52,700 nt of DNA from a virus. The translations under genes and the position numbers were made by a program. This document shows, one piece after another, positions 846-52,700 of the stretch (position 1 is its first letter; every line of letters starts with the position of its first letter). Location of the stretch: positions 1 to 52,700 of IMG/VR virus record IMGVR_UViG_3300046396_000007. One strand, given 5' to 3'. The notes beneath the pieces are model-generated. The model searched no databases, was not told where the DNA came from, and worked only from the letters and a program-made list of their open reading frames with translations.

Positions 846-1235
846 ATGGAAAAGAAAATAGCAATTAAGATTAAGAATGAGCGACAATTTAGGATATTAA
901 TGCAACATTACAGAGATAGGGGATTTTACCCTGGTAGTAATTGCGAGTTGCATGAATTAGATTATAATTCATGCTTGGCAGTAGGATATGAAAATAATTT
1001 TAATTCTATTTATTCCGAACATGAATTAAATAAATATACTATTCTTAACTTCCACCAATTTGCCTCAATAGTTGGCATAGAATTGCTGCCTGAGGAAATA
1101 ATGATAGATATGGAGCCATGCGCAAAAGAAACTGCGACCGTTACTAAAGATGCTGTTGAGTTCTCAGGTCATATTTGTCAGTTGTCAGCATATTTAATTG
1201 AAGAAATATACACCGCTTACAAATCACTTCAGTAA
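846..1235 (+). CDS. hypothetical protein (129 aa)
   Basis: ORF track with an ATG start. Its stop overlaps the next ATG (TAATG at 1233-1237). Confidence 0.65.
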   Translation: MEKKIAIKIKNERQFRILMQHYRDRGFYPGSNCELHELDYNSCLAVGYENNFNSIYSEHELNKYTILNFHQFASIVGIELLPEEIMIDMEPCAKETATVTKDAVEFSGHICQLSAYLIEEIYTAYKSLQ

Positions 1236-1474
1236 TGAGCGCACATCGCCAACAAAGCAAAGATTTACGCGATATGATTCAGTCCGATAGGATAAAGTTT
1301 GCAATAAATCAATTTGAAAAAAGAGGTGTAAAACTTGAATACTAGGATGAAAAAGAAATTTGGTTTTATTGGAAAGGATCACGCGTTACTTTCTTTCCTT
1401 TCACTGGATGGCATAGCGGCAAATCTATAAAAGACGGTCGCGGATTAATGGAATTATTAAATCAATTAAAATAA
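1235..1474 (+). CDS. small protein with an in-frame TAG at 1343-1345 (36 aa + TAG + 42 aa)
   Basis: ATG 1235 reads MSAHRQQSKDLRDMIQSDRIKFAINQFEKRGVKLEY, then TAG, then DEKEIWFYWKGSRVTFFPFTGWHSGKSIKDGRGLMELLNQLK, then TAA 1472-1474. Both ends are TAATG overlaps with neighbouring genes. The 42 codons after the TAG contain no early in-frame start codon. Confidence 0.5.
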
Positions 1475-2808
1475 TGGAAAAACCAACCACCGAAATCCAA
1501 CTAACGCACCCCGAGGTCATTCCCAACGAACTGCAAACCATAGCCGAAAAATCAGGCTTGGTAATTACGGAGGCGCAAGGCATAGCGATTAAGTTTGCTC
1601 CGTACATGGCTACGGTAAACGAATACGCGCAATTAATCGCCAAGATTGAGAAAACTAATCCGACCGAAGTGGATGCAAAATTAGCGCGTGAATACCGGCT
1701 AAAACTTGTCGCTAATCGAGGTAAAAACGGGATGGATATAGTTCACACCGAATGTAAAGCCGGGGTAATTGTTAAAGGCAAGCTGATCGATAACCTGTAT
1801 AATTTGGTTGAAAATTCATCTAAGCTATCTGAATTAGAGGCTGAAGCAATTGAGAAGCACCAGGAACGGTTAGAGGAAAAACGTAAAACAGAAGTTGCAG
1901 CGGGCCGCATTGAATTACTATTGCCTTTCGGGACTGATACTACTTATCTTCCATTGAATATAATGACGGATGAACAGTTTGATCGGTTGCTTGCTAATGA
2001 ATCATTGCTATTTACTACCAGGCAAGAGGTCGAGGCTAAGGCGGAAAGAGAACGTGTTGAGGCTGAAAGGTTGGCGGAAGAGAAAAGGTTAGCTGATGAA
2101 CAAAAAGAGCGCGAAAGGTTAGAGGCTGAACGTGTTGAAGCGGAACGTATCCGAATTGAGCTTGAAAGGATTGAAAACGAAAAGAAAGCCGAAATTGAGG
2201 CTGCTCACAAACAAGCCGCTATTTATATCGAGCAACTTTTACAGGATGGATTTACCGAAGATGAAGGGGGTGACCTTTGGTCAAAACAAGGCAGCTGGAC
2301 TATAGGATATTCAGATCTATTTAAAAGCACACCTGATGAATTTGCAACCACTGTTAAGCGTATTAATGATTGGATTATTGAGCGCAATGCAATGGAAGCC
2401 GAAGAGAAGCGCCACGCCGCTGAATTAAAAGCCGCTAATGATTTGGCTGAAAAACAACGCGCTGAAAACGCCGCCAAACTTGCCGAACAACAACGACTTG
2501 CCAAAATCGAATCTGACAAACAAGCCAAATTATTAGCAGATCAAAAAGCTGCATCCGATAAACTTGCCGCTGAATTAAAGGTCAAAAAAGATGAAGAAAT
2601 TCGAATTGCTAATGAAAAAATAGCAGCAGAAAAACAGGCCCTTATCGCACCGGACAAAGACAAAATAAACGCGCTTGACCTGGCTATTAAAAATATCGCT
2701 ATCCCTGAATTTAAAACTCCGGAGGCTAAAAAGATCGGTAGTAAAGTTCAGGAGTTGCTTAATGGGGTGTTAGATGAAATAAAGGAGCAGAGTAAGAATT
2801 TAAAATAA
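1474..2808 (+). CDS. coiled-coil protein of the recombination module (444 aa, E/R/K/A-rich centre)
   Basis: ORF track. Contains a long ERERVEAERLAEEKRLADEQKERERLEAERVEAERIRIELERIENEKK stretch. It lies directly upstream of recT. Confidence 0.7.
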   Translation: MEKPTTEIQLTHPEVIPNELQTIAEKSGLVITEAQGIAIKFAPYMATVNEYAQLIAKIEKTNPTEVDAKLAREYRLKLVANRGKNGMDIVHTECKAGVIVKGKLIDNLYNLVENSSKLSELEAEAIEKHQERLEEKRKTEVAAGRIELLLPFGTDTTYLPLNIMTDEQFDRLLANESLLFTTRQEVEAKAERERVEAERLAEEKRLADEQKERERLEAERVEAERIRIELERIENEKKAEIEAAHKQAAIYIEQLLQDGFTEDEGGDLWSKQGSWTIGYSDLFKSTPDEFATTVKRINDWIIERNAMEAEEKRHAAELKAANDLAEKQRAENAAKLAEQQRLAKIESDKQAKLLADQKAASDKLAAELKVKKDEEIRIANEKIAAEKQALIAPDKDKINALDLAIKNIAIPEFKTPEAKKIGSKVQELLNGVLDEIKEQSKNLK

Positions 2809-2815
2809 AAATCAT

Positions 2816-3760
2816 ATGTCAAAAACAAACACAGCGGTTCAACCCGCACAAAATCAGACTCCTGCACCCGTTGAGCCAAAAACAGCAAAATCATTATTCA
2901 ATCAGGATAATGTAAAAACCCGTTTCGCTGAAATATTGGGTAAAAAATCAGTTGGCTTTATCGCTTCCGTGCTGCAATGTACTGCGCAAAATTCATCACT
3001 TGCAAAAGCAGATCCAAACAGTATACTACAGGCTGCAATGATAGCAGCAACACTTGATTTACCAATTAATGCAAACTTAGGATTTGCTTACATTATACCT
3101 TATGATAATTCGATAAAGGATAAAGACGGCAATTGGCAGAAAATAACACAGGGGCAATTCCAGGTCGGATGGCGCGGATTTGTGCAGCTTGCACAACGAT
3201 CCGGACAATACCTTAAAATCAATGTTGTGGAGGTGTTTCAAAATCAATTCAAATCTTACAATACACTTACCGAGGAGCTAGATGCTGACTTTAGTATTGA
3301 TGGGGAAGGCGACATTGTTGGATATGTAGCTTACTTTAAACTTCTTAACGGCTTTGAAAAAACTGTTTATTGGAGTAAAGCAAAAGTAACCGCGCACGCT
3401 CAAAAATACTCAAAGGCTTTTTCATCACAATACGGGAAATCCCCATGGAAAGACGTTGATCAATTTCATGAGATGGCTAAAAAAACCGTTTTGAAAAACA
3501 CGCTATCCAAATGGGGGCCGTTATCAATCGAGATGCAAACTGCCATGAAAACAGACCAGGCAGTTATCAAAGATGCTGACACGCAGGATATTGATTATTC
3601 AGACGTTGAGCCCTTGCAAATTGAAGATCCTGAAAATAAACGTTTCGGCCTGATGGTTGATGATTGTAAAACAGTTGCTGAACTTGAAAAACTACGAGAT
3701 AGTATTTCAAATGATGTGCAAAACGATTTGTATAACCAACAGTTAAACGCCTTGTCATAA
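2816..3760 (+). CDS. recT: RecT-family single-strand annealing recombinase
   Basis: Segments ...LGFAYIIPY..., QFQVGWRGFVQLAQRSGQYLKINVVEVF and SPWKD...MAKKTVLKNTLSKWGPLS match the RecT family pattern as I recall it. Confidence 0.85.
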   Translation: MSKTNTAVQPAQNQTPAPVEPKTAKSLFNQDNVKTRFAEILGKKSVGFIASVLQCTAQNSSLAKADPNSILQAAMIAATLDLPINANLGFAYIIPYDNSIKDKDGNWQKITQGQFQVGWRGFVQLAQRSGQYLKINVVEVFQNQFKSYNTLTEELDADFSIDGEGDIVGYVAYFKLLNGFEKTVYWSKAKVTAHAQKYSKAFSSQYGKSPWKDVDQFHEMAKKTVLKNTLSKWGPLSIEMQTAMKTDQAVIKDADTQDIDYSDVEPLQIEDPENKRFGLMVDDCKTVAELEKLRDSISNDVQNDLYNQQLNALS

Positions 3761-3767
3761 TCATTAT

Positions 3768-4685
3768 ATGAAGTTTGATAATTATTTATTCAGATGCTCC
3801 GCGCTGGGGCATCTGATGGAAAAGCCGGATGGCAAAACAAATCTCGATATTTATTTAGCTTCAAAAGCTAAATACGATCAGAGGGTTACTGAATTGGATG
3901 CGCTGCCTAAATACGATAAAAAGACGGGACTTGTCATAATGAAGTCTTGGGAAAACAAAAAGGCCGCTGTTGATCGTGAATGGATGGCTATGGACTACGC
4001 AGAAAAACATAAGGATGATGTTCAGTTATCCATCGGGGCAAAAACACATTTGATGGATATTTATATATCTGAAAAATATGGGCGAAAAACAGATATTACC
4101 AATAAGTATGTTGAAAAAGGATTAACTGTTGAAGAGGATGGAATAACCATTTATAGCCGCATAAAAAAGGTATTTTTCCGAAAGAATGAAACGCACCTTA
4201 AAAACCTTTTTATTAAAGGAACACCTGATAGTTTTATCGGAAAGTCAATCCACGAAGCGGATGAAATACCGGATATTAAATGTTCTTGGAATATTTACAC
4301 ATTTTTGCGGACATTTACCAAAGATATAAATACGCTTTATTATTGGCAGGGTGTAGGCTATATGTGGCTTACAGGAGCAAAAAGATTTAACTTGGCATAT
4401 TGCCTTGTAAATACACCAACCCCGCTTATAGAGGCTGAAAAACGATCATTGTGGTATAAGTTGGGTCAGCCCGAAAATGATAACTCAAATTTCATTGATG
4501 CCTGTAATGAATTGGAAAAATCAATGCTTTATGACGATATTCCGCTAAATGAAAAATTGCTTGAATATTCAATCGAACGCCGCGAGGAAGATATTGAACT
4601 ATTAAAGAAAAAGATCATTGCAGCCAGGGCTTATTTGAATGAACTACACGAATTATTAACGGTTAAATTTTCACAAGCAGCATAA
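3768..4685 (+). CDS. PD-(D/E)XK recombination exonuclease (YqaJ/lambda-Exo-like partner of RecT)
   Basis: Lies immediately downstream of recT. Contains GTPDSFIG ... ADEIPDIKCSWN, a D...D/E-x-K nuclease motif. Confidence 0.65.
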   Translation: MKFDNYLFRCSALGHLMEKPDGKTNLDIYLASKAKYDQRVTELDALPKYDKKTGLVIMKSWENKKAAVDREWMAMDYAEKHKDDVQLSIGAKTHLMDIYISEKYGRKTDITNKYVEKGLTVEEDGITIYSRIKKVFFRKNETHLKNLFIKGTPDSFIGKSIHEADEIPDIKCSWNIYTFLRTFTKDINTLYYWQGVGYMWLTGAKRFNLAYCLVNTPTPLIEAEKRSLWYKLGQPENDNSNFIDACNELEKSMLYDDIPLNEKLLEYSIERREEDIELLKKKIIAARAYLNELHELLTVKFSQAA

Positions 4686-4687
4686 CC

Positions 4688-4855
4688 ATGACCACCCATC
4701 AACGCATACAAGCCCTGCTCAACTTAGGCATGACGTATAATGAGCAACGCCGGGATTTCACAGGCCAGAATGGTAAGATCGATCACGATATGGTTATCTA
4801 TCATTCGGATAATGATTTTGAGAAAAAATTAAGTAAATTAAAGGAGAAGAAATGA
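4688..4855 (+). CDS. hypothetical small protein (55 aa)
   Basis: ATG 4688 reads MTTHQRIQALLNLGMTYNEQRRDF...KLKEKK. Its TGA overlaps the next ATG (ATGA). It is below the track's size cut-off. Confidence 0.5.
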   Translation: MTTHQRIQALLNLGMTYNEQRRDFTGQNGKIDHDMVIYHSDNDFEKKLSKLKEKK

Positions 4856-5106
4856 AAACAGAAATAAGGGGCGCATCATTAGTTGCGTTCGAGAAAATAA
4901 TAAGCGATATTGATTCTGCCGCATACGATGCCGGAATTAAACAGGGTAAAATTGATGGCGAAGAGGAATATAAACAATCTCTTGATCGCGAATTTGAAAA
5001 ATCAAACCATGACTTTGTTGTTGAAAAATTCAGCGACTGTAAAACATTGGCAGATTTTACCGAAACATTTAACGAATTACGTAACCGCTCTTATAACTTC
5101 ATGTAG
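4852..5106 (+). CDS. hypothetical protein (84 aa)
   Basis: ORF track. Ends in TAG 5104-5106, directly abutting the clamp ATG in the same frame. Confidence 0.6.
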   Translation: MKTEIRGASLVAFEKIISDIDSAAYDAGIKQGKIDGEEEYKQSLDREFEKSNHDFVVEKFSDCKTLADFTETFNELRNRSYNFM

Positions 5107-6192
5107 ATGCAAATTAAAATCCAACAATCCCAATTATCCGAAGCCTTGAAACTAATATCAAAGGCGGTTAGTCAAAATAATATTATTCCGGCAGCTTCAT
5201 GCATCAGGTTTAAAACAGATGGCAATCAGCTCGAATTATCGAGTTGTAATATGCAAGTTTCAATGCAAACTACAATACCATGTGAGGCTACCGAAAACAA
5301 CGATGGTATCATTCAGTCAGGGTTATTAATCGAAACTATTTCATCATTGGCAGGTCAGTCTGTAACCTTTAATATCGATGGTGGTATAGTTACCATCATT
5401 CACAATTCAGGCACATGTGAGATGCCAATTGAACCAGGGGGCGACTTTCCGAAAATTATCATCGATACCGATAAAGAAGCAAAAATGCAATCCGCTGATT
5501 TGTTTGAGGCAATTTATTCAACTGCTTATGCCAGATATTTAGATGAAACGAATTTAAAGTTTACAGGATTGCAAGTTGATTTCGCAAAGGATAATGCGAC
5601 ATTTGTGGCGTGTAACTTAGTGCTATTATCGGCATTCAATGTGCCTGGCAAATTTAAACCAGGTGGTTTATTAATGCCAAAGCATGTAACAGACGTTTTA
5701 GCTAGTCTCACATTTCAATCTGAATGCACTATTAAGTATTCGGATAAAAGCATTGGTTTCGAGTTTGAAAATGGATTGATAATAAAATCAATGCTTATCG
5801 ATGACAAATATCCTGATTGGCGATCAATCGTGCCTAAAAATGATATTATGTGCACTGTGAACCGGGCCGAATTAGTAAGTTCATTAAAGCGAGTTATTAA
5901 GTTCTCTCCTATCAAAATTAAGATCGTTTCTATTTATGCTTCGGCTGGTAAATTTGAGGTTCAATCATCAGATATGAACATGAAGCAATCGGCAAAGGAA
6001 ACCATTAACGCTAATATGACTACCGACTTAATGATTAATATCAATATTAACGGTGGTGAACTTATAGCAGCTTTATCTCACATGGATAGTGAAAACGTGA
6101 CTTTTTTATATAGTAACCAGGAAACCGCAATGCTTATAAAAGAAGATCTGGAAAATGAAAATTTTGTAAGTATAATGCCGCTGAAAGTGTAG
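5107..6192 (+). CDS. dnaN: DNA polymerase III beta sliding-clamp homologue
   Basis: 361 aa. The N-terminus MQIKIQQSQLSEALKLISKAVSQNNIIPAASCIRFKTDGNQLELSSCNMQ... and ...GGDFP... follow the DnaN pattern. The stop is TAG followed immediately by TAA. Confidence 0.8.
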   Translation: MQIKIQQSQLSEALKLISKAVSQNNIIPAASCIRFKTDGNQLELSSCNMQVSMQTTIPCEATENNDGIIQSGLLIETISSLAGQSVTFNIDGGIVTIIHNSGTCEMPIEPGGDFPKIIIDTDKEAKMQSADLFEAIYSTAYARYLDETNLKFTGLQVDFAKDNATFVACNLVLLSAFNVPGKFKPGGLLMPKHVTDVLASLTFQSECTIKYSDKSIGFEFENGLIIKSMLIDDKYPDWRSIVPKNDIMCTVNRAELVSSLKRVIKFSPIKIKIVSIYASAGKFEVQSSDMNMKQSAKETINANMTTDLMINININGGELIAALSHMDSENVTFLYSNQETAMLIKEDLENENFVSIMPLKV

Positions 6193-9895: not shown

Positions 9896-11332
9896 ATGGG
9901 TAATAAACTTTCAATTGCTCATATTGCATCCGAAAAGGACTTCCCTCATTTTACATTATATAAACCTAAACAAAACGGGGGATGGGAGTTTGATTATGTT
10001 AAGCTAACTGCCTTTTTTACAACTAGGGGATATTTCATTTACAGAACGAGTATTGATAAATTTTTTCCAATAAGAATAATTGATAATATCGTTAAACAAG
10101 TTGGCAAAAAAGAACTTAAGGATGAAATTTTGAACTTCCTGCTAAATATAGATGAATGTCCTGAACATATACACCAATTCGCGCTAAAGGATATTGCAAA
10201 AGCAGTCAATGAGGAATTTTTGGAAACGCTACCAGCAAAACAGGTTGAGTTTAGGCGCGATAGAAAAGATGCAATGCAGATATACTATCAAAATTGCATA
10301 GTAAAAATAACCGGTAAAAAAATTACCACCCACCCATATACGGAGCTTGATGGATATATTTGGGAATCGCAAATTTTGCAGCGTGATTATGATATTGTCT
10401 ATGGCCCTGAAATGCAAAGTGATTTTAAAAAGTTTGCTTTCAATATATCAAATCAAGATCCGGACAGATATGCTTCGGTTTGCAGTGTAATTGGTTTCCT
10501 AATTCATAACTTTAAAAACCCAGCATATTGCCCAGCAATCATATTAAATGACGAGGTTATTAGCGATCATCCGGAGGGTGGTACAGGTAAGGGAATTTTA
10601 ATAAAGGCGGTTGAGCAATTTTTAACTACCGTTACAATTGAGGGTAAAACATTTAATTTCGACAAAGGTTTTGTTTATCAATCGGTAAATAGCGATACTA
10701 AACTAATGTCATTCCAAGACGTAAACAAATCATTCGATTTTGAGCGCCTGTTCAGTGTTTTAACTGATGGAATAACAGTTGAAAAGAAAGGGCTCCAAGC
10801 GATACATTATCCTTTTAATGAAACACCAAAAATAGTTATCACAACCAATTATGCCATTCGAGGAGTGGGCAACTCTCATGAACGTAGGCGTTTTGAATTG
10901 GAGATTAGCCAATATTATAACAAGAAGCGAACACCATTTGATGAATTTAAAAAAATGATGTTCATTGATTGGAGGCAACACGAATTTTTAGCGTTTGATT
11001 CATTTATAATGGAATGCTGCCAATATTATTTAAACAACGGACTGGTTACCCAGGTTTTGATTAACCTGCCGGAGAAGCGTTTAATGACAGAAACAAATTA
11101 TGATTTCATAGAATTTATGGAGGGTAAGGAATTGTTAACAATGGCAATAGCTGACGTATATTCAGATTTTGTAAAAGAATATCCTGAATATTTAAAAGAT
11201 AAGTTTTTCAGTAAGCAAAAGTTGTCTAAATGGATGAGAATTTATGCCTTATATAAAGGGTACTCTATGCCTGATAAAGCATATGTTTACAATTCAATTA
11301 GGTATTACACCTTTAATAAATTACAAAGTTGA
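9896..11332 (+). CDS. P-loop NTPase, SF3 (P4/D5-type) replicative helicase
   Basis: Walker A motif HPEGGTGKGIL. The 478-aa size and its position after the primase-like gene and before the iterons fit this call. Confidence 0.65.
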   Translation: MGNKLSIAHIASEKDFPHFTLYKPKQNGGWEFDYVKLTAFFTTRGYFIYRTSIDKFFPIRIIDNIVKQVGKKELKDEILNFLLNIDECPEHIHQFALKDIAKAVNEEFLETLPAKQVEFRRDRKDAMQIYYQNCIVKITGKKITTHPYTELDGYIWESQILQRDYDIVYGPEMQSDFKKFAFNISNQDPDRYASVCSVIGFLIHNFKNPAYCPAIILNDEVISDHPEGGTGKGILIKAVEQFLTTVTIEGKTFNFDKGFVYQSVNSDTKLMSFQDVNKSFDFERLFSVLTDGITVEKKGLQAIHYPFNETPKIVITTNYAIRGVGNSHERRRFELEISQYYNKKRTPFDEFKKMMFIDWRQHEFLAFDSFIMECCQYYLNNGLVTQVLINLPEKRLMTETNYDFIEFMEGKELLTMAIADVYSDFVKEYPEYLKDKFFSKQKLSKWMRIYALYKGYSMPDKAYVYNSIRYYTFNKLQS

Positions 11333-27687: not shown

Positions 27688-30078
27688 ATGAACAGCAATC
27701 AACCGCAACCCAATAAATTTACCTACCCGTTAGAAATACGCGGAGTTGAAACAGATGTGCTTTTTAATACTCCTGATGGATGGCTGCAAACCAATATTAA
27801 GTACGGTCGGTCTAAACAGTACGGAGGTGTTATTCGTGCGTTAACAATGCCTATTAAGTATGTTAATACAGGGGCTTCATTAGTCCGTAAAGAGTTTTAT
27901 AAATATGCACAGCTATCCCGCGTTAATCAGCGAATATTAAAGAATGATCCTTTGACGTTTGTTGACGAAGAGTTATTTTTTGGCAAGTTAGATTTTTCAA
28001 AGTGGAGTGATACTCCTACAGGTGTTTCGCTAAATTTAATTGAAAACAACATCAATACACAAATTGCAGCCTACGGAGATCAGCAATATATCATTCCGTT
28101 AACCGTAAACCCTACGCAACGAGCCGCCTGGATTGCTTCACGCGGCTATGATCCAATGGTTGATATTTTATTAACACCATTACAACTACAAGAAACAGCC
28201 GATTTAATATTTAACGCCAATCCTGATTTTAGGATGAATGCTTTTTTTGCAATTAGCATTGCCGATTATCAGCAAATGAGCGTCAACCCGTCAATACAGG
28301 CTACTAATTTTTTATTCCAAGCCCCCCCTGTATTTTCAAATGACTTTTTCCATATAGCCAGAACAGATACAAAAATCCGCATATCATCGCCATTAGACCC
28401 GGTTACCGGGTTGCCTATAGCAGGCGGTATTCAAACTCTTGTTAATGGCCCAAGCGGAGGCGGTACTGGACAATATGAATTTAATATTTATAACCAAGCC
28501 GGAACGTTATTAAAAACATTAGCAACCTCCCCTGCGGTTATTCACACAACACCTTTTAATTTTCAGTTTGATTTTTCATTGGAAGTTTCAGCGGGCGATA
28601 AGTTATATTTTTATATCAAAAACATTCTTAATCCTACATTGGAAGATATAGGGCATGGGGTTCAAATAAGCAGCGGATCAATGCGGCTGACTTATTACAC
28701 CTCAACTCCTGCAACATACTGTCAAGCGTTACGCCCTAATTATATATTCGATTACTTAGTGCAGCAGATGAACGGAACCGATATGCCAGCCGTGGTAACG
28801 CAAAGTAGGCTATTAGACGGGCCTTTATATCAAGCCTGTATTACATGTTCAAATGCCATTCAAACTTCGCAGGTGTCGACTATATACCAGGCAGGGGAAA
28901 GCCTGCAATATGGGGATGAATACAAAGTATTTGGAGGCGTTATTCATTATTGGAATAGCGATGGTGTGGCTACTAATTATAATCCCGGTGATATATTTAA
29001 GGCTTTTTTGCCGCACGATACATTTACGACTGATCCAGATCAGGATGGATTTGTACAGCAGCAAAATAACAACCCTCAAATATTATTGTCCTATAATACT
29101 TTTTTCAAAGCCATCCGCGGTGTTATGGGAGCTCAACTAGGTACTGGATTAGATCCGACAAATGCAAATAAATACTGCATGGAAGATTTACGGTATTTCT
29201 ATAGACCAACCGCTAAAAGCGCAACGCCAAATCAGGCGGCTTTAGATTTGGGTATTAATATTGATATTAATTCGCCAAACTTACAGGTAGCGGAGGATTT
29301 AATAGTTAACGGAATAAAAGGAGGGTATGCAAATCCGCAGTTAACCGCTTTAAATGGTGGCAAAGAAGTTAACGCTGGTGTGGTTTATGGCACTAAAATT
29401 ACTACAACATCAAATATTTTAGATATTACTTGTCCTATAAATGCAAGCCCATATGCAATCGAAGAAAAACGGATACAGCCAGGATTCAATCAGCCATCAA
29501 GCGGGCTATCAGGGTCGTTTTATTTAAATTCAGCAGCATCCCGTTCAGATAATGATAACCATTTCGTATGGGTTAAGCCTAATTCAGAACCCGAGCAAAC
29601 GTATTACCAACCCTTAACCGTTGCCGAAGGATGCCTGTCTTATTCCGGTGTTGATGCTGGATGTTATAATTGGCCTTTATCACCCATGCAAAATCTGCAA
29701 CGCGGGTCAAACTACTTGGCTTCTATATTCGACAAAATGCAGGGTTATACCATTTACTTAACGGGAGCCGATAAAAACACATCTATGATAACTGTTGATT
29801 TAAACGGGCGAAGAGTTGCAGAGGGCGAAGTGGTTAATATTAGCGATTTAGGGGCGCAAATATTTTTGCCGTATTACGATTTAATAACTACGGGGATGCA
29901 ATTCAATGCAGAGCGGATGTTAAGCGTAAACCCATTTGGGGAGGTCTGGTATATGTACAGGGGCATTAATTGGAAGTCATTTATACAGGATGTTTCAGTT
30001 GATTGTGGTAGTAATTCGCCGCAAGGCATAAAGGTGTTATTGGCGCCAAGTAATGATTTAACTTTAAGGGAATTTTAG
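27688..30078 (+). CDS. tail tip / distal tail protein (796 aa)
   Basis: Lies directly after the tape measure. Ends in TAG 30076-30078. Confidence 0.55.
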   Translation: MNSNQPQPNKFTYPLEIRGVETDVLFNTPDGWLQTNIKYGRSKQYGGVIRALTMPIKYVNTGASLVRKEFYKYAQLSRVNQRILKNDPLTFVDEELFFGKLDFSKWSDTPTGVSLNLIENNINTQIAAYGDQQYIIPLTVNPTQRAAWIASRGYDPMVDILLTPLQLQETADLIFNANPDFRMNAFFAISIADYQQMSVNPSIQATNFLFQAPPVFSNDFFHIARTDTKIRISSPLDPVTGLPIAGGIQTLVNGPSGGGTGQYEFNIYNQAGTLLKTLATSPAVIHTTPFNFQFDFSLEVSAGDKLYFYIKNILNPTLEDIGHGVQISSGSMRLTYYTSTPATYCQALRPNYIFDYLVQQMNGTDMPAVVTQSRLLDGPLYQACITCSNAIQTSQVSTIYQAGESLQYGDEYKVFGGVIHYWNSDGVATNYNPGDIFKAFLPHDTFTTDPDQDGFVQQQNNNPQILLSYNTFFKAIRGVMGAQLGTGLDPTNANKYCMEDLRYFYRPTAKSATPNQAALDLGINIDINSPNLQVAEDLIVNGIKGGYANPQLTALNGGKEVNAGVVYGTKITTTSNILDITCPINASPYAIEEKRIQPGFNQPSSGLSGSFYLNSAASRSDNDNHFVWVKPNSEPEQTYYQPLTVAEGCLSYSGVDAGCYNWPLSPMQNLQRGSNYLASIFDKMQGYTIYLTGADKNTSMITVDLNGRRVAEGEVVNISDLGAQIFLPYYDLITTGMQFNAERMLSVNPFGEVWYMYRGINWKSFIQDVSVDCGSNSPQGIKVLLAPSNDLTLREF

Positions 30079-30090
30079 TACATTTACCGT

Positions 30091-30246
30091 ATGAAACAAT
30101 GCAATAAAGTTAACACCAAAGGCAAAAAGCATGCGCCCGTTTATTATACAGGCATAGCGAAATGGCCGTCAACCAATTGTATTTGCGGCGCTTATTCAAT
30201 TTGTTTATGTCACAAGCCGGAGCCGGTTGAGGCCGCTAAAAAGTAA
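30091..30246 (+). CDS. Cys-rich micro-protein (51 aa), in the same frame as the upstream 796-aa ORF
   Basis: ATG 30091 reads MKQCNKVNTKGKKHAPVYYTGIAKWPSTNCICGAYSICLCHKPEPVEAAKK. Its TAA overlaps the next ATG (TAATG). Confidence 0.4.
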   Translation: MKQCNKVNTKGKKHAPVYYTGIAKWPSTNCICGAYSICLCHKPEPVEAAKK

Positions 30247-33932: not shown

Positions 33933-33946
33933 AATTTTTATTTTTG

Positions 33947-34017
33947 TGCATGCGGGGCGATTCGAACACCCATCTTCAGAATGAAAATCTGATTCTCTGC
34001 CTTTAAGTTACATATGC
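33947..34017 (-). tRNA. tRNA-Glu (anticodon TTC), no encoded CCA
   Basis: Hand-folded cloverleaf. Acceptor GCATATG/CGCATGC has one A-C mismatch and one G-U. D arm is CTT-AAAGGCA-GAG. Anticodon stem TCAGA/TCTGA carries loop TTTTCAT. Variable loop is 4 nt. T arm is GGGTG-TTCGAAT-CGCCC. Confidence 0.65.
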
Positions 34018-52456: not shown

Positions 52457-52700
52457 ATGGAAAAGAACTTCGCCCTCACAGAGGAAACAATGGTAAACAT
52501 ATTTGGTATAAGGCTATACCGAATAAAGGCAACTAAAACAACGAAGTATGTAAAAGAGGGTGATTTAGGCGGATGGGTAGATACGGAAACTACAAAAAAC
52601 GGCGATGCGCGGGTTTCCGGCGATGCATGGGTTTCCGGCAATGCGCAGGTTTACGGCGATGCATGGGTTTCCGGCGATGCATGGGTTTCCGGCAATGCGC
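52457..52700 (+). CDS. 5' part of the wrap-around hexapeptide-repeat protein gene (continues at base 1)
   Basis: ATG 52457 reads MEKNFALTEETMVNIFGIRLYRIKATKTTKYVKEGDLGGWVDTETTKNGDARVSGDAWVSGNAQVY... and is open to the window end. It was not in the ORF track because it has no stop inside the window. Confidence 0.8.
   Translation, partial: MEKNFALTEETMVNIFGIRLYRIKATKTTKYVKEGDLGGWVDTETTKNGDARVSGDAWVSGNAQVYGDAWVSGDAWVSGNA
52598..52700. repeat. Terminal direct repeat, identical to 1..103
   Basis: 103/103 identity with the window start. Confidence 0.95.

Follow-up and report, generated by a model that had tools for sequence, protein, structure and literature searches.

A phrog_28096-family gene interrupted by one in-frame amber codon, probably a recent nonsense allele, in a phage with a likely Bacteroidota host

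The window, by which we mean the whole 52,700-nt stretch of viral DNA analysed here, carries near its start a short gene that is interrupted by a single stop codon. An upstream ORF on the + strand (846..1235, 129 aa), for which the PHROG and Pfam searches gave no significant family match, ends in a TAA (1233-1235) that overlaps the ATG of the interrupted gene at 1235-1237 (TAATG, 1233..1237, + strand). From this ATG, 36 codons (1235..1342, + strand; MSAHRQQSKDLRDMIQSDRIKFAINQFEKRGVKLEY) lead to an in-frame TAG (amber) at 1343..1345 on the + strand, codon 37 of the gene, and under the standard code only this N-terminal part is translated. The same frame then stays open for 42 codons (1346..1471, + strand; DEKEIWFYWKGSRVTFFPFTGWHSGKSIKDGRGLMELLNQLK), up to a TAA at 1472-1474 that is apparently the stop of the ancestral, intact gene. 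This TAA in turn overlaps the ATG (1474-1476) of the next gene (TAATG, 1472..1476, + strand). The neighbour so joined (1474..2808, + strand) encodes a Glu/Lys/Ala-rich, repetitive-looking and uncharacterised protein of 444 aa. The initial annotation of this DNA had described both overlaps, the TAG after 36 codons and the 42 open codons beyond it; its account is exact to the base, and its translation of the second half is identical to ours. It had also stated that the second half has no early ATG, GTG or TTG, and there is indeed just one such codon in frame, an ATG that comes as the 35th of the 42 (1448-1450). Having no early start codon of its own, the 126-nt segment goes untranslated unless the TAG is bypassed. 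A 52-aa ORF on the minus strand (1224..1382) was dismissed; it lies antisense to a conserved gene and is without support.

How much weight can be placed on the open frame itself? Stop codons make up 6.2% of codons in the six frames of the window, so that a run of 42 open codons has a probability of about 0.07, and at least 42 open codons trail 12% of the window's genes. The open frame by itself is thus not beyond chance, and it is homology that decides.

The gene sits in a replication/recombination (early) module. The 444-aa gene is followed by genes for RecT (2816..3760), an exonuclease (3768..4685) and a sliding clamp (5107..6192), and a helicase-methylase gene is also nearby. The window begins and ends with the same 104 nt (1-233 / 52597-52700 region), so the genome is probably circular or complete, at about 52.6 kb; one ORF, ending at 519, spans the junction. 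The 104-nt terminal repeat lies in an array of 18-nt tandem units encoding hexapeptide repeats (GDAWVS / GNAQVY), and because the overlap falls inside this array the copy number of the repeat is uncertain. Close relatives of the phage were not found in the collections searched: exact-protein look-ups gave one Logan contig only, and among deposited phages nothing matched the first 6 kb of the window substantially in a distant-mode DNA search. We note that the 478-aa ORF at 9896-11332 encodes a VirE/primase-type protein rather than a terminase; the best relative that it has in deposited phages is only 42% identical and belongs to a Caudoviricetes sp. from Manatee Spring.

Do the two halves of the interrupted gene belong to one protein? 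When the halves are joined, the 79-aa sequence matches phrog_28096 with an E value of 2.8e-19, residues 14-79 aligning with positions 11-76 of the 89 in the profile, so that the match spans the TAG. The C half (42 codons) matches the same family alone, at 1.1e-14, and the N half adds 14.6 bits to the PHROG match once it is joined to the C half. A protein search returned 15 homologues of 74-80 aa each, from which a family HMM was built. Against this HMM the joined window sequence scores 105.8 bits, where the family members themselves score 74.8-132.6. The C half scores 80.2 bits, as compared with 65-83 (median 75.6) for intact members. The N half alone scores 14.6 bits, in a family whose N halves range from 12.6 to 38.1 (median 30.5). 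All 14 invariant columns of the alignment of the 15 homologues (A1) are kept in the window sequence. The family-invariant residues R19, G31, P55, G58, W59, G62, I65-K-D-G-R-G70 and L74 are retained, and with them every family-invariant residue of the P-[FY]-[ST]-G-W...I-K-D-G-R-G...L core.

The initial annotation had likened the C-terminal motif to a small phage or plasmid family, left unnamed, in which a single domain spans both halves. Such a family exists, as phrog_28096, and its members are single ORFs and single domains over both halves. It is a small (about 75-85 aa), uncharacterised family found in phages and prophages of Bacteroidota. A tblastn search of deposited phage genomes found six cultured Bacteroidota phages in which both halves are covered in a single piece; these phages infect Elizabethkingia, Flavobacterium, Alistipes, Bacteroides and Parabacteroides, and examples of the family are found in Elizabethkingia phage TCUEAP2, Flavobacterium phage vB_FspS_tant8-1, Alistipes phage AS73P1 and Parabacteroides phage PDS1. 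From this distribution the host of the window phage is likely a member of the Bacteroidota. A profile search of 1.84 billion representatives gave about 372 clusters at 50% identity; among the 150 cluster matches listed, most have a length of 70-100 aa and almost every one aligns with the profile in a single stretch.

A broader view of the family came from scanning IMG/VR, metagenome contigs and GTDB genomes at the DNA level, which yielded 172 loci; in 161 of these the core motif was located. The gene is an uninterrupted single ORF in 158 of these 161 related loci. In the 158 intact loci a Met lies 47-131 residues upstream of the motif, at 51 in 138 of them. A stop at the position of the window's TAG occurs in none of the 158 intact loci and in none of the 15 protein homologues. 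The best identity to the window gene in these scans is at most 58%. The window gene thus resembles other phrog_28096 members in its domain (residues 14-79), its invariant residues, its length of about 79 aa and its early/replication gene surroundings, and some members likewise have 3' ends tightly packed against the next gene. It differs from them in the TAG at codon 37, which breaks the family trait of one uninterrupted ORF and is seen in none of the 158 intact loci, and in an N-terminal third that stands at the divergent end of the family. On homology, then, we take the window copy to be a disrupted member of phrog_28096, and we suggest that 1235-1474 be annotated as a single disrupted gene of this family rather than as a 36-aa gene followed by a gap.

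Structure prediction for the closest homologue (P0001) places the TAG within the fold. The AF2 model (pLDDT 77) has a helix at residues 4-27, four strands, of which strand 1 is at 31-34, and a second helix at 68-77. When the window sequence is aligned to this model, the TAG site lies between strands 1 and 2. The stop is therefore predicted to fall in the loop joining these strands, within what the model presents as a single small alpha/beta domain. The N half would then correspond to the N-terminal helix and the first beta-strand, and the 42 downstream codons to strands 2-4, with the conserved P-[FY]-[ST]-G-W...S-I-K-D-G-R-G motif, and the C-terminal helix.

What the protein does is not suggested by the searches: the split gene has no Pfam match, no PDB fold matches the model of the homologue at an E value below 0.16, and the BFVD structure matches are solely to unnamed or uncharacterised viral proteins. 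Ten longer family members were scanned against Pfam, and a named partner domain, DUF3268, appeared in one only. This is the metagenomic protein P0152, in which DUF3268, a zinc-finger-containing domain, precedes the family domain. In Alistipes phage AS73P1 (locus L176, 3001-3519; OP172640.1 12823-13341) a 172-aa protein carries the family domain in its first 75 aa, and its C half matches the uncharacterised phrog_13941. Fusions to phrog_13941 and to DUF3268 are the only ones seen.

How did the stop codon arise? P0001, encoded on a Logan contig (locus L001), is 57% identical to the window protein over the whole alignment and 76% identical in the C half. Its sequence runs ...KLEYQDDTEIWFYWKGSRV, and at the TAG site it reads KLEY-Q-DDTEIWFYWKGSRV. 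The codons at the site are GAA TAC TAG GAT GAA in the window and GAG TAT CAG GAT GAC in L001. With CAG in the closest homologue at the codon that is TAG in the window, a single C-to-T transition accounts for the stop; an amber allele is expected to have a sense codon one substitution away in a homologue, and this is what is found. Downstream of the TAG, the window and L001 differ at 7, 8 and 24 bases in codon positions 1, 2 and 3, respectively, with 16 codons differing synonymously and 10 non-synonymously. This divergence, dominated by third positions, reads as a clear coding-type pattern over a long divergence. The initial annotation had left it to be seen whether the second half carries a coding signal; the retained invariant residues and the 7/8/24 pattern supply one.

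The gene appears to be dispensable, i.e., accessory, to judge from comparisons among phages. Its neighbours vary from phage to phage. The closest counterparts of the 444-aa gene (L179-L181), which have at most 51% identity and are the best match to any neighbour gene in the collections searched, have no family member within 3 kb on either side. Other disrupted alleles are also seen. In two human-gut assemblies (L124 and L126; OHGP01000248.1 and OHDU01000238.1, about 3000-3200) the phrog_28096 gene has, near its 5' end, a shared 1-bp deletion that changes GAAAGGCAAAAA to GAAGGCAAAAA, a frameshifted allele that thus recurs in two assemblies. In L076 a rearrangement has replaced the N-terminal third of the family gene.

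The reading we favor, and consider quite probable, is that the window carries a recent CAG-to-TAG nonsense allele of a dispensable phrog_28096 gene, which leaves a 36-residue fragment and 126 nt of intact, untranslated sequence. A C-to-T transition would have turned Gln codon 37 (CAG) into TAG. Ribosomes starting at the ATG at 1235 would terminate at 1343-1345 and release 36 residues, amounting to one helix and one strand, and the 42 codons downstream, which hold the core of the family motif, would be left untranslated. The 444-aa gene would initiate independently at 1474. The gene being accessory, the phage would tolerate its loss. Three parts of this account are our inference: termination at the TAG in vivo, a fragment without function and a recent date for the mutation. 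The last follows from the state of the downstream half: the decay that an amber allele is expected to show beyond its stop is absent, and the mutation is therefore recent or, less likely, the stop is read through. Two observations tell against a nonsense allele. The C half, at 80.2 bits, scores near the top of the range of intact members and the TAATG junction at its end is kept, which fits continued translation too; and the residue in the closest homologue is Gln, as expected under the TAG-to-Gln reassignment known from phages.

As a nonsense allele the gene is familiar in kind. In classical phage amber mutants and nonsense pseudogenes, a nonsense mutation truncates the protein but does not otherwise damage the gene. 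The window shows the same picture, with a single CAG-to-TAG change that cuts the sole domain of the protein and an intact remainder downstream. It differs from the classical mutants in that the allele comes from a wild metagenomic genome, where there has been no selection in a suppressor host; the affected gene being non-essential, viability does not call for a suppressor. We regard the event as an ordinary one, a routine nonsense allele in a dispensable, uncharacterised gene, and of little biological weight.

Might the T at 1343 be an artefact? The base could have been miscalled in sequencing or assembly, or the assembler could have picked a minority variant, and the gene would then be intact (CAG) in the phage population. 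One base separates the window from an intact gene, and the downstream half is undecayed. Moreover, besides the JGI contig the phage is found in only one Logan run (SRR35491132). Against this, the 52,425-bp Logan contig from that run is identical to the 52,700-bp JGI contig that is the window over 7,142 nt including the TAG, though the two assemblies may share reads, and substitution errors are uncommon in short-read consensus. We think it unlikely that the stop is an artefact.

A further possibility is that the TAG is decoded. It would most plausibly be read as Gln, either through leaky near-cognate read-through or with a suppressor tRNA that comes from the host or from a TAG-recoded phage infecting the same cell, and the full 79 aa would be made constitutively or conditionally. 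That the closest homologue carries Gln there is in keeping with this, as are the perfect preservation of the downstream half and the kept TAATG junction, and Bacteroidota are infected by crAss-like and Lak phages that have reassigned TAG to Gln (10.1101/2021.08.26.457843; PMC9523058). The window phage resembles these recoded phages (code 15; crAss-like, Lak and other gut phages; 10.1101/2021.08.26.457843, PMC9523058) in having TAG where a homologue has Gln, in its likely Bacteroidota host, in its low GC content and in TAG being the rarest stop. It differs from them in that it has one in-frame TAG, in an early gene, and in that TAG still ends genes. We consider decoding of the TAG decidedly unlikely, for the reasons that follow.

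We applied reassignment criteria after Borges et al. (10.1101/2021.08.26.457843), by which a gain in coding density of more than 10% when TAG is read as sense marks recoding in contigs of 5-100 kb. With a simple greedy ORF caller, the coding density of the window goes from 94.0% under code 11 to 95.2% under code 15, a gain of 1.2 points that does not reach this level. Stop usage points the same way: of 92 ORFs, 52 end in TAA, 28 in TGA and 12 in TAG, so that TAG, the rarest stop in this low-GC genome, still terminates genes. Reading TAG as sense also produces artificial fusions. The 84-aa ORF at 4852..5106 becomes fused to the sliding clamp at 5107..6192, and the other TAG-ended ORFs gain short, unsupported tails, except for 27688..30078, which runs into 30091..30246.

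A systematic scan of the window for ORF pairs in the same frame with nothing but a TAG between them found no other conserved gene split by TAG; the genome has a single in-frame TAG. Two pairs were considered as TAG-split genes and rejected. In the first, the TAG at 5104-5106 is followed at once, in the same frame, by the ATG of the clamp; since the clamp's own ATG-started product matches phrog_947 from its first residue (1-360 on profile positions 3-364 of 368), 4852..5106 and the clamp are two genes. In the second, the 796-aa ORF 27688..30078 ends in TAG (30076-30078) and its frame continues to a 51-aa, Cys-rich ORF, which has an ATG of its own (30091). This 51-aa ORF (30091..30246) has no PHROG match and forms a TAATG overlap with a 702-aa gene at 30246.

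No suppressor tRNA was found in the window by ARAGORN or by Rfam, whether at gathering score or at E<=1. The only tRNA, and the only RNA family match in the window, is a tRNA-Glu(TTC) at 33946-34017 on the minus strand. As the genome is probably complete, a suppressor tRNA is not simply beyond the window's end. The missing suppressor is nonetheless weak evidence against decoding, since suppressor tRNAs are detected in only about 40% of TAG-recoded phages (10.1101/2021.08.26.457843). The location of the stop also differs: recoded stops are reported to appear in structural and lysis genes (10.1101/2021.08.26.457843), whereas the split gene sits in the early module, beside RecT, exonuclease and clamp. 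Taken together, coding density, stop usage, artificial fusions and the missing suppressor led us to reject genome-wide reassignment of TAG, and we note that a solitary in-frame TAG opposite a Gln in some homologue should not be taken as evidence of code 15.

Read-through at this one site fares no better. Folding of the 150 nt around the TAG (1325-1474, from 18 nt upstream of it) gave an MFE of -22.1 kcal/mol against a shuffle mean of -23.8 (single sequence), a structure no better than shuffles (z +0.55), so that no stimulatory RNA structure is apparent. In programmed read-through, as at the UGA between coat and A1 of Qbeta or the UAG between gag and pol of MuLV, the stop is conserved in relatives and the part upstream is a complete, functional protein. 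The window resembles these systems in that the reading frame stays open beyond the stop and encodes a conserved region; it differs in that the stop is unique to one genome, with no counterpart among the 158 intact loci and 15 protein homologues, that it splits a single domain and that it has no downstream structure. Pyrrolysine at the TAG was considered and set aside: it needs pyl genes, and none are known in Bacteroidota.

One might think that the TAATG junctions require translation across the TAG, and the initial annotation had reasoned that the TAG must be decoded if the string of coupled genes is to be free of gaps. That reasoning finds no support. The recoding and read-through tests are all negative, and no other member of the family has a stop at the site. 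The 3' TAATG is also present in an intact member (L005), and the junction therefore fits an inherited feature and is silent on present translation. The TAATG junctions of the split gene would accordingly fit inheritance from the intact gene, as the nonsense-allele reading has it.

A more particular form of decoding is that the amber codon acts as a conditional switch, the 79 aa being made only when a TAG-to-Gln suppressor tRNA is at hand, for example from a co-infecting crAss-like phage. Under this reading the split gene would be a sensor of, or an early step toward, a change of code. Similar ideas have been raised speculatively in the discussion of 10.1101/2021.08.26.457843. The Gln in the closest homologue, the undecayed downstream half and the kept TAATG are consistent with a switch, which we nevertheless hold to be highly unlikely. 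If it were true that the TAG is decoded, the gene would be a minimal case of suppressor-dependent expression, of a single codon, in a standard-code phage, and would bear on how recoding starts.

Finally, could the C-terminal 42 codons be expressed separately? Translation might start at the ATT at 1358, or ribosomes terminating at the TAG could re-initiate at the ATG at 1347-1349, one base past the stop (TAGGATG) and in the +1 frame, and then slip by -1 on G-AAA-AAG (1349-1355), an A-run ending in G at which such a shift regains the family frame. This is extremely unlikely: the heptamer is imperfect, its P-site codon having to re-pair with GAA; there is no downstream RNA structure; the ATG simply results from the Asp-Glu/Asp codons and is shared by the intact homologue, which has no A-run; the product would have only part of a single domain, strand 1 and the N-terminal helix being missing; and the +1-frame ORF stops at 1430 and has no homology. 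This ORF (1347-1430) has 27 codons (MKKKFGFIGKDHALLSFLSLDGIAANL), begins ATG-AAA-AAG and probably arises by accident from the codons for Asp-Glu-Lys-Glu in the family frame.
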